Positions 7,974-11,844 of a stretch of 25,436 nucleotides of DNA are shown here, piece by piece. The notes beneath the pieces are model-generated. The model saw only the letters and a program-made list of their open reading frames with translations, was not told the origin of the DNA and did no database searches. The stretch's first letter is position 1. Every line of letters starts with the position of its first letter. Where the stretch lies: the IMG/VR virus record IMGVR_UViG_2850784384_000006. The stretch is one strand, 5' to 3'. The translations under genes and the position numbers were made by a program. The DNA comes from a virus. Taxonomy: Duplodnaviria > Heunggongvirae > Uroviricota > Caudoviricetes.

Positions 7974-8182
7974 ATCATCCCCCGAATGCTGATGTAACGC
8001 TTCCGCCCAGCTGGCTCAGCAAGGATTCGTTTGGCGGTGTAGTGGATTTCATCCCGGAATTCTGCACCGCCGATGTGCTGACGCCATCCTGCATATCTGA
8101 TTTATCTGCATGAAGTGGCACACTGAATTTGGCCACCTGAACAGAGGTGATATGCTCACCTCAGAACAACACAGGTGCTCCA

Positions 8183-8485
8183 ATGAAAAAAAGAAATTTT
8201 AGCGCAGAGTTTAAACGCGAATCCGCTCAACTGGTTGTTGACCAGAAATACACGGTGGCAGATGCCGCCAAAGCTATGGATGTTGGCCTTTCCACAATGA
8301 CAAGATGGGTCAAACAACTGCGTGATGAGCGTCAGGGCAAAACACCAAAAGCCTCCCCCATTACCCCGGAACAAATTGAAATCCGTGAGCTCAGGAAAAA
8401 GCTACAACGCATTGAAATGGAGAATGAAATATTAAAAAAGGCTACCGCGCTCTTGATGTCAGACTCCCTGAACAGTTCTCGATAA
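8183..8485 (+). CDS. IS911-like OrfA (helix-turn-helix transposition regulator)
   Basis: 100-aa product [21 protein letters not shown]...[23 protein letters not shown] with leucine-zipper-like end. Internal Met chosen; the track ORF starts 12 codons earlier at 8147. Confidence 0.85.
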
Positions 8486-8511
8486 TCGGGAAACTCAGAG
8501 CGCATTATCCT

Positions 8512-9351
8512 GTGGTCACACTCTGCCATGTGTTCGGGGTTCATCGCAGCAGCTACAGATACTGGAAAAACCGTCCTGAAAAACCAGACGGCAGACGGGC
8601 TGTATTACGCAGTCAGGTACTTGAGCTACATGGCATCAGCCACGGTTCGGCCGGAGCAAGAAGCATCGCCACAATGGCAACCCGGAGAGGCTACCAGATG
8701 GGACGCTGGCTTGCTGGCAGGCTCATGAAAGAGCTGGGGCTGGTCAGCTGTCAGCAGCCGACTCACCGGTATAAACGTGGTGGTCATGAACATGTTGCTA
8801 TCCCTAACTACCTTGAAAGGCAGTTCGCCGTGACCGAGCCAAATCAGGTGTGGTGCGGTGATGTGACCTATATCTGGACGGGTAAGCGCTGGGCGTACCT
8901 CGCCGTTGTTCTCGACCTGTTCGCAAGAAAACCAGTGGGCTGGGCCATGTCGTTCTCGCCGGACAGCAGGCTCACCATGAAAGCGCTGGAAATGGCATGG
9001 GAAACCCGTGGTAAGCCCGGCGGGGTGATGTTCCACAGCGATCAGGGCAGTCATTATACGAGCAGGCAGTTCCGGCAGTTATTGTGGCGATACCAGATCA
9101 GACAGAGTATGAGCCGGCGCGGAAACTGCTGGGATAACAGCCCAATGGAACGCTTCTTCAGGAGTCTGAAGAACGAATGGATGCCGGTGGTGGGTTACGT
9201 AAGCTTCAGCGAGGCAGCTCACGCCATAACGGACTATATCGTTGGATATTACAGTGCACTAAGACCGCACGAATATAACGGTGGGTTACCCCCAAACGAA
9301 TCGGAAAATCGATACTGGAAAAACTCTAACTCGGTGGCCAGTTTTTGTTGA
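8512..9351 (+). CDS. IS911-like OrfB (DDE transposase catalytic domain; normally expressed as OrfAB fusion by -1 frameshift)
   Basis: 279-aa ORF in the -1 frame relative to orfA with DDE/integrase-core-like motifs (...[10 protein letters not shown]...); slippery heptamer A AAA AAG at about 8434..8440 near the end of orfA. Confidence 0.8.
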
Positions 9352-9828
9352 CCACTTCAGCAACGCTAACGCTCTGCGTCTGCGACATGATCACTTCACG
9401 CAGGGTAAGCGTGCAGTTCAGCACGTTCTCGCTGGTTTTATCCGTTGTCACCTCGATGGCTCGCACCAGCATATTGCTGTAAACCCGCTTTCCGGTCACT
9501 ACATCGAACGGCACCCTAGAGGACTGGAGATCCAGTAGTTGCTGATAGGTCTCTTTCGGGCTAAGTCCGGCGCTGAGGCCGATTGACGATGTATCAATGA
9601 AGTCCAGCAACGAACCGCCACCTGCGAAGCCGCATTCCATCGTGACTTCGCTGGGGCGCTTATACGCATGATCGGCGATGAAACCCGACGCGCTATTCGT
9701 TGTTGGCTTCTCCACCGGGTGCTCAGTAATTTCGAGCGCATCAGAATGCTTTTCAGAAACAACCACGCTGGGGATTAATATTCCAATTCGCCGGGATTGC
9801 TGGCGAAAAATTGCTGATAAAATATCCA

Positions 9829-11844
9829 TTATCTCGGTCCTGCGGGGAGTTGCTGGGTTAACTGTGAATTCACGCCCTTTTGACGGTCAACAGTCAAACG
9901 GGCAGCCTCGCGCGGATCGAAAACGCCGTGGATGTTAATATTCGTTTCCTGCTGAATCACCGGGGCGCTGGTGGGCATATTGCTCATTACTTTCGGAATG
10001 TAGTTGCGCGTTTCCTGCGGCATTAGCCCCATTCCATAACGCTTAACATTCCCGATCCCCCAGTTATATGATGCCAGTGCTTTGCTAAGGTCTCCGCCGT
10101 TCTGCCGCAACAGCTGGCTCAGGTACTTAGCGGCTGCCTGAGCTGACTTTTCCGGGTCGAATACATCATTCCCACGCAGGCCCATGTCGCGCGCCGTGCC
10201 ATCCATAAACTGAAACAGACCTTTAGCGCCAGCGCCTGAAACGGCGAACTGATTACCGCCCGATTCCGTTATGGCCACGCTGCGCAATAACCCCTCCGGA
10301 AGCCGGTAGAGCTGTTCCAGGTTGGTAAACATCGGCTGCATCCATCCCAGCAGTTCAGAGCCTGCTTTGGTTGGCTGTGGCCGCTTAACTGACTGGCCGA
10401 GCTGCTCAGGCTCATCATCACCGAACCAGCCGCGCACCGTTCGGCCCACGCTGCGAGGATCGAATCCCCAGTGCTCTTTAATCCAGTCGGCGGTTCCGTT
10501 GGCGCTGTCTGTTACCATCGGCATCGCTGACGGATTTTCGCTGCCCTGATTAAGCATCTGTTTGCCGATGCTGGCGGCATCAGCCCAGCGGCCATCTTTA
10601 ATGGCGTTGAGCAGGTCGGCGATCATGTTCAGCATCTTGCCGAACTCACCCATTTGCGAAATGAAGTTGCTAAAATCCCACTTTAGGGACCATGACTTGG
10701 GGTCAATACCGAGCAACTTAGCCAGCGCTTTTGTCAGGTCCGTAACAGTCTTTTTCAGGTCACCAATCATTTTGACGGCCTGATCAATTTCAGTCTTCCA
10801 TTTCCCCCAGTCAATCAGGCTTTTGCCACCTTCTTTCCACGTCTGGTAATCATCCAAGAGCAGACCAAGTGCAATAATAAGCGTCGTTATCATGCCCAAG
10901 GGTGATGACATGAAAGCGGTATTTAGCAGCCGCCATGCAACCAACAGCCCACTGAACAATGCGATAAGCTGCTGCGTGGCTGGGTTCAGCTTTTTGAACC
11001 AGGCGATCACACCCTCAACAGCTTGCCCAGTTCGCCATAACACGCGGGTAATCGCGTCACCTGCCCAGAGAATTCCTTTGATGATCTTCGTGATGACCGC
11101 TTCAATCTTCGGCCAGTTGTCGAGTATCTGCCTGCGGAAGTTATCAATACTGCCAGCAAGGCCACCAGCTAGGTTAGAGCCAATCTTGTCTTTCGCCTGT
11201 CCAAGCGTCATCGTCAGATTACGCATGGAGGTCATGAAAATATTGGACTGTTTAGCCGCTGACTCAGCATTAAAACCAATACGCTTTGCCGTCAACGCGT
11301 ACTCAGAACTGAGCTGCCCCATCCCTCTGCGCATCGCCATCAGCGTGTTTTCATCGATGCCGAGCATCTGCGCGTATTGCTTCGCGCGGTAATACGGCAT
11401 GTTGTTGAGCTTTTGGCCAACGCCAGTAAAGATGGCAGCAGTATCACGCATCTTTCCGCTGGCATCGCGGGTCTGGACACCAAGACGGTTCAGGAACCCT
11501 TCCGCCCCCGGATTGCTACGCATGAAGCCAGCCAACCCTTCGAGGGAGGACATAGCCGACTCGGCGCTGGCACCGGTTTGCGATGCGGCGTATCCCAGCG
11601 CTTTGATGCCCTGGACACTGGCCCCCGTCCGCTGGGATGCCCAGTAAATTTTATCCAGACCGTTCGCGATCTGAGTGGTAAATCCGACAATGCTCAGCGC
11701 TGCGCCTTTCACCACCGCGCCGACCTTCAGAACGTTCGCGGTAACGCCTTTCAGCACGGCTTCAAACTTATTAGCGCCAGCCTGATCGATATCGAATCCC
11801 AGCGAAACAAGGAAATCTTTAATCGTATCTGCGTTACCGCTCAT
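9829..11844 (-). CDS. Tail tape measure protein with C-terminal lytic transglycosylase (SLT) domain
   Basis: 671-aa ORF, RBS GGAGA 7 nt upstream; Ala/Gly-rich helical N-terminal half, central hydrophobic segments, C-terminal ...LLRSVAITESGGNQFAVSGAGAKGLFQFMDGTARDMGL...ASYNWGIGN resembling family-1 lytic transglycosylase (ES motif). TAATG overlap with next gene start at 9829. Confidence 0.8.
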   Translation of the reverse strand: MSGNADTIKDFLVSLGFDIDQAGANKFEAVLKGVTANVLKVGAVVKGAALSIVGFTTQIANGLDKIYWASQRTGASVQGIKALGYAASQTGASAESAMSSLEGLAGFMRSNPGAEGFLNRLGVQTRDASGKMRDTAAIFTGVGQKLNNMPYYRAKQYAQMLGIDENTLMAMRRGMGQLSSEYALTAKRIGFNAESAAKQSNIFMTSMRNLTMTLGQAKDKIGSNLAGGLAGSIDNFRRQILDNWPKIEAVITKIIKGILWAGDAITRVLWRTGQAVEGVIAWFKKLNPATQQLIALFSGLLVAWRLLNTAFMSSPLGMITTLIIALGLLLDDYQTWKEGGKSLIDWGKWKTEIDQAVKMIGDLKKTVTDLTKALAKLLGIDPKSWSLKWDFSNFISQMGEFGKMLNMIADLLNAIKDGRWADAASIGKQMLNQGSENPSAMPMVTDSANGTADWIKEHWGFDPRSVGRTVRGWFGDDEPEQLGQSVKRPQPTKAGSELLGWMQPMFTNLEQLYRLPEGLLRSVAITESGGNQFAVSGAGAKGLFQFMDGTARDMGLRGNDVFDPEKSAQAAAKYLSQLLRQNGGDLSKALASYNWGIGNVKRYGMGLMPQETRNYIPKVMSNMPTSAPVIQQETNINIHGVFDPREAARLTVDRQKGVNSQLTQQLPAGPR

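Follow-up and report, generated by a model that had tools for sequence, protein, structure and literature searches.

A single copy of IS911 has almost certainly inserted once into a predicted tail-tube initiator gene in an oac1b-carrying prophage remnant of Shigella flexneri, splitting a gene whose reading frame can be restored by excision. We analysed a stretch of 25,436 nucleotides (hereafter the window), for which an earlier note had proposed a simple insertion, with a 3-bp GCA duplication, of an IS911-like element in a tail gene. The coordinates and the empty sites in related genomes both agree with that proposal.

The trinucleotide GCA abuts both ends of a 1249-bp element (8111..9359), with the left copy of the duplication at 8108..8110 and the right copy at 9360..9362 (neither assigned to a strand). 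Read across the left junction the sequence is CTGATTTATCTGCATGAAGTGGCACACTG, across the right GACCACTTCAGCAACGCTAACG, and at the empty site GATTTATCTGCAACGCTAACGCT. Empty sites in three assemblies (L001, L014 and L020) each carry a single GCA, and in E. coli AR_0119 the uninterrupted sequence runs from ...ATTTATCTGCA directly into ACGCTAACG..., again with one GCA. A 3-bp target duplication is typical of IS911; one of 4 bp is ruled out here because the neighbouring bases differ on either side (T/A in each case). At the base composition of the window a 3-bp match between the flanks has a chance of p ~0.016, although chance needs no argument, since the empty site exists. Both flanks of the element are 100.000% identical to sequence in L014, where the two alignments share exactly 3 bp. 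When the window was excised in silico (300..8110 joined to 9363..12900) and aligned with L020, it matched along its whole 11,349 bp in a single alignment free of mismatches and gaps. Neither the IS junction nor the empty site had an exact match in a collection of species-representative genomes (one genome per species), which evidently lacks this allele.

Removal of the element together with one GCA yields a minus-strand open reading frame of 603 nt, comprising 200 codons and a stop. Its start codon (ATG, 9829-9827) overlaps the stop of the tape-measure gene as TAATG, and its native stop (TGA, 7977-7975) is followed by one spacer nucleotide (7974) and then by the ATG of the next gene (7973-7971), so the continuous frame of about 200 codons, ending one nucleotide before the downstream gene, is just as had been proposed. 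The insertion point lies between the second and third bases of codon 157. The 5′ part of the gene (9360..9829, minus strand) holds codons 1-156 and two bases of codon 157; the 3′ part (7975..8110, minus strand), now separated from its start, joins in frame after excision and completes codons 157-200 and the TGA. At present, the 5′ part is read as a chimeric frame of 167 aa (9326..9829, minus strand) with its stop inside the right inverted repeat (IRR). Here the third base of codon 157 is supplied by the element and the alanine is retained, while codons 158-167 and the stop are wholly IS sequence. The product thus has 157 native and 10 IS-encoded residues and lacks the native 43-residue C-terminus. 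The count of 11 borrowed codons given previously holds if the junction codon is included; only 10 derive entirely from the element.

The interrupted gene was said to encode a tail component lying between tape measure and hub genes, and its neighbours fit that description. Upstream is a tape measure protein with a lytic transglycosylase (SLT) domain (9829..11844, minus strand; phrog_2276, E = 9.7e-227; Pfam SLT). Downstream lie a baseplate plug resembling Pam3 gp18 (7668..7973, minus strand; Pfam PF22479, E = 2.2e-25) and the baseplate hub (6601..7665, minus strand; phrog_196, E = 3.4e-82).

The rebuilt protein has full-length relatives that cross the junction. It is identical to a 200-aa Dit_like protein in six other assemblies (L014 and L020-L024) and matches E. 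coli WP_032238365.1 at 199/200 positions. Our search returned 1211 homologues, the best 120 of which are 175-208 aa long and cover 73-100% of the query. At the DNA level, the excised query was at least 80% covered in 36 E. coli genomes, and each of the 20 best listed matched in a single BLAST piece. The match to PHROG 817 spans residues 1-191, and the phage collection yielded a single match, Citrobacter phage Omnitron (88% identity; record unannotated). Among homologues with overall identities of 71-94%, residues 157-188 are conserved, with invariant or nearly invariant positions at A157, K159, M162, G165, T168, G175, K177 and S185.

On sequence evidence, we assign the split gene to the Dit-like tail-tube initiators of Pam3- and E217-type myophages. 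The Pfam model Dit_like (PF21821) matches residues 21-156, all upstream of the junction, with 107.3 bits where 24.2 would suffice. A phmmer comparison with the structurally characterised Pam3 tube initiator gp17 (PDB 7yfz chain a) gave E = 1.9e-12, aligning residues 14-66 and 93-173, and the position of the gene points the same way. Foldseek also ranked 7yfz_a first; the query was a low-confidence AlphaFold model (mean pLDDT 50) of P0004, a homologue 94% identical to the rebuilt protein, and we take this result as weak support only. No NCBIfam model covers this tail protein. Cyanophage Pam3 has the same order of tape measure, initiator, plug (gp18-like) and hub genes, and its initiator is of similar length (191 aa for gp17 vs 200 aa), although identity is only ~27% over the aligned part. 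In Pam3, the C-terminal domain of gp17 extends as far as the wedge of the baseplate and holds the plug protein like a clamp (PMC9942802). By analogy, the family member described here is predicted to form a hexameric ring that seeds the tube and to contact the wedge and plug through its C-terminus. Because the C-terminal regions align only partly with each other, a plug-clamping role for residues 157-200 is put forward as a prediction.

The element had been labelled 'IS911-like', which captures its kinship and is too loose: judged by its sequence it is IS911 proper. It is complete, lies on the plus strand with its transposase genes antiparallel to the tail operon, begins TGAAGTGG and terminates CCACTTCA. 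All 1249 of its 1249 bp (100%) are identical to S. flexneri plasmid copies annotated as 'IS3-like element IS911 family transposase', and it is 99.9% identical to 'IS911 ORF1/ORF2' on pCP301. The first gene, orfA (8183..8485, plus strand), encodes 100 aa with an HTH_Tnp_1 domain (Pfam PF01527, E = 3.8e-14), and orfB (8512..9351, plus strand) encodes the catalytic core (Pfam rve, E = 2.9e-32; NCBIfam transpos_IS3, 302 bits). A programmed -1 frameshift at the slippery A AAA AAG site (8434..8440, plus strand) opens an OrfAB frame of 389 aa, equal in length to the called transposase gene of assembly L002. The two ends, starting with TGAAGTGG, are identical for 8 bases, share a GGCCACC block and have TG..CA termini. 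Near-identity to annotated copies, the orfA/orfB frameshift with an rve domain, the imperfect terminal repeats and the 3-bp duplication are thus all present. Published IS911 has an OrfA of 100 aa and terminal inverted repeats of 36 bp (PMC2909936), and the copies on S. flexneri virulence plasmids such as pCP301 share the 100-aa OrfA, the A6G frameshift, an OrfB with the DDE motif (Pfam rve), the TG..CA ends and a 3-bp duplication. The OrfAB length of 389 aa differs from the 382 aa quoted for reference IS911 (PMC2909936) and agrees with the RefSeq protein assigned to the copies in S. flexneri. There is no substantial difference between this copy and known IS911.

The element that surrounds the insertion has been described before, as the oac1b-carrying prophage remnant of S. 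flexneri serotype 1b. The oac gene of the window is 89.0% identical to Sf6 oac over 1002 nt of DNA, within the 88-89% published for oac1b (PMC3630932), while the protein shares 90.7% identity with Sf6 Oac here vs 85% in the same paper. Gene order in L002 and L003 follows the published remnant, running from IS1 and oac1b through tail and head genes, terminase and IS911 to an HK022-like integrase and truncated ymcA, and early and lysis genes are absent; the DNA compared stops short of the torT side. The oac1b prophage of strain 1997020 (GenBank JN377795), compared through its published description, shares with the window the layout IS1, oac1b, tail fibre, baseplate, tape measure, head, terminase, IS911, HK022-like integrase, truncated ymcA, yccZ and etp (PMC3630932). 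The only IS911 that the paper reports stands beside the terminase genes, corresponding to the second copy in the window, whereas the copy in the tube-initiator gene is additional here. Sf6 offers another case of IS911 in a Shigella phage genome (PMC3630932); there it occupies the nin region, a non-essential early part of a viable phage, whereas here it interrupts a structural gene of a remnant.

The earlier note had counted the insertion as a second, independent lesion of the prophage, and other lesions are indeed present. The oac1b remnant described by Sun et al. 2012 has neither early nor lysis genes, and attempts to induce it failed (PMC3630932). In addition, a 146-bp deletion fuses the spike and sheath-initiator genes into one encoding a 315-aa product. 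This fusion is listed in 61 blocks, and in all five contexts shown its neighbour is an intact Dit_like gene of 200 aa. One genome alone on record (GCA_003855135.1) encodes exactly the 167-aa truncated product; gene calls from short-read assemblies are no guide to its spread, since their contigs are interrupted at IS elements. At least three lesions are present in all, and the insertion came last. In the order of events that we propose, the early, immunity, replication and lysis genes had already gone, beside the second IS911 copy, and the 146-bp deletion had also taken place. An active IS911, a member of the IS3 family that moves by copy-out-paste-in via a circular intermediate, then inserted once into the tube-initiator gene, a staggered cut at codon 157 producing the usual 3-bp duplication, here GCA.

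The second IS911 copy (23431..24679) lies 15.3 kb away between two truncated genes, without a target duplication. The two copies have the same orientation, differ at one base and bracket a 14-kb block of head to tape-measure genes (9360..23430). They could conceivably form a deletion-prone unit resembling a composite transposon, able to move or excise this block, although we consider this very improbable; if it were so, IS-IS excision would remove most structural genes and keep oac1b. The data examined gave no sign that the block has moved or been excised.

Three other origins for the split arrangement were weighed against insertion. IS-linked rearrangement has occurred in this element, because the second copy lacks a duplication and sits between truncated genes, and the junctions of the first copy might in principle likewise reflect rearrangement or IS911-IS911 recombination joining segments that were not neighbours. 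The first copy, however, has a perfect 3-bp duplication and flanks that are contiguous without mismatch in L014 and L020, and these empty-site alignments refute such an origin, leaving it extremely unlikely. A misplaced IS in the genome assembly, with the split gene as an artefact, is slightly easier to entertain, given the many IS911 copies in Shigella genomes (PMC3630932) and the single genome that records the truncated product, yet it too is very unlikely: a misjoin would not leave exact IS ends flanked by a target-site duplication, the source record is a closed 4.59-Mb chromosome, and the one-base difference distinguishes the two copies in the window. The least credible reading is that the gene naturally ends near 9360 and that 7975..8110 is a separate small gene, so that nothing was disrupted. 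Nothing favours it beyond the two open reading frames in the window, and the 53-aa frame at 7975..8136 has its start inside the IS. The PHROG 817 match crosses the junction, and a single 200-aa Dit_like gene is present in 10/10 plug-gene contexts, where it ends one nucleotide before the plug gene, as well as in 5/5 fusion-gene contexts; in no relative does the gene naturally end at 9360, and these contexts refute a natural end there.

With a genuine insertion as the preferred reading, what it does to the protein is a separate matter. The earlier claim of inactivation stands as far as the loss of 43 conserved C-terminal residues goes; inactivation itself is inferred, as the whole Pfam Dit_like domain (21-156) survives. 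A truncated protein that still works is unlikely, though distinctly more plausible than the alternatives above: the intact tube-like β-barrel domain could form an initiator ring, and the lost segment has low complexity and a low-confidence model. Against this, residues 157-188 hold the conserved positions noted above, the C-terminal domain of Pam3 gp17 touches the wedge and keeps the plug in place, and the downstream genes would lose translational coupling too. The truncated protein is probably defective, as what it lacks would be the counterpart of the Pam3 gp17 region that extends to the wedge and grips the plug. The plug gene would also lose its translational coupling, and late transcripts would have 1.25 kb of antisense IS sequence to traverse before reaching the genes for plug, hub, spike, wedge and fibre. 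A promoter and terminator scan found four terminator-like sites, no excess over the 2.3 ± 2.0 of shuffled sequence, and no promoter-like site. No further effect on phage production is plausible, because the prophage was already non-viable, with early and lysis genes absent and the spike and sheath-initiator genes fused, and the insertion is expected to have no phenotype beyond marking its lineage.

The insertion represents ordinary genome decay and is nothing new in kind. The case shows cleanly how a recent IS911 insertion can leave its target recoverable, and in the decay of the oac1b remnant, the element that defines S. flexneri serotype 1b, it is one further step, specific to this strain. 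Together with the 146-bp deletion, its two junctions can serve to mark lineages, ordering the states from intact, through deletion, to deletion plus IS911. For annotation, it is a warning that the 167-aa 'Dit_like' and 315-aa spike/sheath-initiator proteins are products of damaged genes.

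IS911 copy 1, a 1249-bp element at 8111..9359, splits a minus-strand tail gene into 7975..8110 and 9360..9829, with its transposase genes antiparallel to the tail operon. The left junction (8100-8125) reads ...ATTTATCTGCA|TGAAGTGGCACACTG... and the right junction (9345-9370) ...GACCACTTCA|GCA|ACGCTAAC...; the element is flanked by a direct repeat of GCA (8108-8110 and 9360-9362), which is exactly 3 bp because the adjoining outward bases differ. Joining 7975..8110 to 9363..9829 on the minus strand gives 603 nt (200 codons plus TGA), the frame of about 200 codons, stopping one nucleotide before the next gene, that an earlier reading of the sequence had rebuilt. 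Its ATG (9829-9827) and the stop of the 671-aa gene upstream overlap in TAATG, and its TGA (7977-7975) is followed by the single nucleotide 7974 and then by the next gene, with its ATG from 7973. The open reading frame now present (9326..9829) encodes 167 aa, of which residues 1-157 are native: the third base of codon 157 is supplied by the IS, leaving Ala unchanged, and the remaining 10 residues and the stop derive entirely from the IS right end. The 3′ fragment persists only as a 53-aa ORF with a GTG start within the IS. Only one genome on record, GCA_003855135.1 (CP034060.1), has this truncated 167-aa protein.

Other genomes retain the site in its empty state, and this comparison distinguishes a simple insertion from a natural gene end at the junction, a rearrangement uniting unrelated flanks and a chance GCA repeat. 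A 1249-bp query from which copy 1 and one GCA had been removed in silico matched 41 complete E. coli genomes, 36 of which cover at least 80% of it at one place; the best 20 of these 36 each aligned as one BLAST piece (top identity 99.0%). In E. coli AR_0119, the empty site (...TCTGCAACGC...) has a single GCA and falls within a gene of 603 nt (‘phage baseplate protein’, WP_032238365.1; 199/200 residues identical to the rebuilt protein), which spans from the tape-measure gene to the ‘baseplate plug’ gene, whose start lies one nucleotide on. A look-up of the plug protein found a 200-aa Dit_like gene directly upstream of the plug gene in 10 of 10 contexts. An uninterrupted 200-aa gene, together with the empty sites, rules out a natural end at the junction. 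The flanks are contiguous in two relatives, which excludes a rearrangement: CP026772.1 (L014), one of the ten contexts, matches the window at 100.000% identity on either side of the IS, its alignments sharing exactly the 3-bp repeat and its Dit_like protein being the same as the rebuilt one, and the 300-12900 part of the excised window aligns with GCA_902501945.1 as one 11,349-bp block with 0 mismatches and 0 gaps. A 3-bp match by chance has p ~0.016 at the window's base composition, and the empty sites dispose of this explanation too. The junctions and empty sites thus bear out a simple insertion with a 3-bp GCA duplication.

In the rebuilt protein, residues 21-156 match Pfam Dit_like (PF21821; 107 bits) and residues 1-191 match PHROG 817. 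Cyanophage Pam3 supplies the sole match among solved structures, its tube initiator gp17 (7yfz_a, E = 1.9e-12); gp17 is also the top Foldseek match, for which the query was a poor model (pLDDT 50) of a 94%-identical homologue. Upstream lies the tape-measure gene, whose product has an SLT domain; downstream lie genes for a Pam3 gp18-like plug, hub, spike (PF18352 N-terminal domain), sheath initiator, Baseplate_J wedge protein and tail fibres. This neighbourhood fits a Pam3/E217-type baseplate, and the order (tape measure, split gene, plug, hub) agrees with the location between tape measure and hub assigned previously. In Pam3, a β-barrel ring of gp17 seeds the tube; its C-terminal domain reaches as far as the wedge, with every plug monomer lodged between two C-terminal helices (PMC9942802). 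Database searching returned 1211 homologues of the rebuilt protein, the best 120 of which are 175-208 aa long. Across 46 aligned sequences, positions A157, K159, M162, G165, T168, G175, K177 and S185 of the lost segment are invariant and several further ones are >90% conserved. Given this conservation and the role of the gp17 C-terminus in Pam3, losing residues 158-200 probably disables the plug and wedge contacts. The proposed inactivation is an inference, and the truncated protein keeps the Pfam Dit_like domain itself. Separately, a 195-aa E. coli ‘recombinase family protein’ (P0069) carries PF00239 and Dit_like and matches 73% of the rebuilt protein at 99% identity; judged from its sequence, the same tail gene appears to have been damaged differently there, by fusion to a tail-fibre invertase gene.

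Copy 1 is IS911 itself: along its whole length it matches, with 100% identity, S. flexneri virulence plasmid elements that bear the annotation ‘IS3-like element IS911 family transposase’, and its identity to pCP301 ‘IS911 ORF1/ORF2’ is 99.9%. Its OrfA (100 aa) has an HTH domain and its OrfB an rve domain, and a −1 shift at the A AAA AAG site (8434-8440) opens a 389-aa OrfAB, as long as the transposase annotated in the source record. The published IS911 organization is the same (PMC2909936), and the element appears intact; IS3-family elements transpose by copy-out-paste-in (PMC11708052). Copy 2 (23431..24679), in the same orientation, is distinguished from copy 1 by a single base: IS position 1145 is T in copy 1 and C in copy 2. 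No target duplication flanks copy 2 (ATG left, AAT right); its neighbours are a 5′-truncated gene for an HNH endonuclease (23115..23430, minus strand) and one for an HK022-like integrase, also 5′-truncated (from 24681, plus strand). A deletion or recombination next to the IS appears to have taken away the early half of the prophage. The directly repeated copies enclose a 14-kb block from tape measure to terminase genes (9360..23430); homologous recombination between them would remove most structural genes, while the baseplate genes and oac1b would stay.

The window begins with an IS1 end (1..331, with the 5′ portion of minus-strand insAB') adjoining, as in the published remnant, a 333-aa acyltransferase gene (Acyl_transf_3; 394..1395, plus strand). 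Tail-fibre, baseplate, tail and head genes follow, then those for the large and small terminase subunits, the truncated HNH gene, copy 2 and the truncated integrase; immediately past the window, the source record continues with a truncated ymcA-like gene followed by etp and etk. The layout matches the oac1b-carrying incomplete prophage described in S. flexneri serotype 1b, an element without recombination, immunity, replication or lysis genes whose induction failed in each of 20 strains (PMC3630932). By sequence, the acetylase is consistent with oac1b: its gene is 89.0% identical to Sf6 oac, agreeing with the published figure, whereas the protein is 90.7% identical to the Sf6 O-antigen acetylase, in disagreement with the published 85%. 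The prophage was dead before copy 1 inserted. The AR_0119 prophage occupies a different chromosomal site, adjoining tonB-yciI, and carries an invertible tail-fibre segment and a recombinase gene (8098..9600 of its sequence, L001), whereas the Shigella remnant (1396..2183 compared) lacks the invertase and has oac1b at the corresponding place. A 96-aa DUF4236 ORF (5930..6220, plus strand) lies within the baseplate block but on the other strand, between a 114-aa gene and the spike gene. Several relatives from E. coli and Shigella (L008, L011, L014-L016) have it at the same position, and it may be a moron gene.

Relative to the otherwise 100% identical CP026772.1, 146 bp lying between two GTGTCGCC copies are missing from the window (at 5024..5031). 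The deletion joins spike residues 1-228 in frame to the final 89 residues of the sheath initiator, and the 315-aa chimera (4760..5707, minus strand) keeps the PF18352 N-terminal domain and loses the Apex domain. The fusion is widespread: its protein occurs in 61 blocks of the collection, and its gene adjoins an intact 200-aa Dit_like gene, identical to the rebuilt one, in 5/5 contexts shown. The 146-bp deletion is older than the copy 1 insertion. The most economical order is loss of the early region at copy 2, a state common to the published remnant, then the 146-bp deletion within a sub-lineage, then insertion of copy 1, seen in the window's strain only. The description of copy 1 as a ‘second independent lesion’ was right in spirit; at least three lesions are present.

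As a whole, both the observation and the interpretation in the earlier note are supported. IS911, the target duplication, the Dit-like tube initiator and the oac1b remnant are all of known kinds. The 2012 description of the remnant (PMC3630932) makes no mention of the copy 1 insertion, a routine strain-level variant that matters little.
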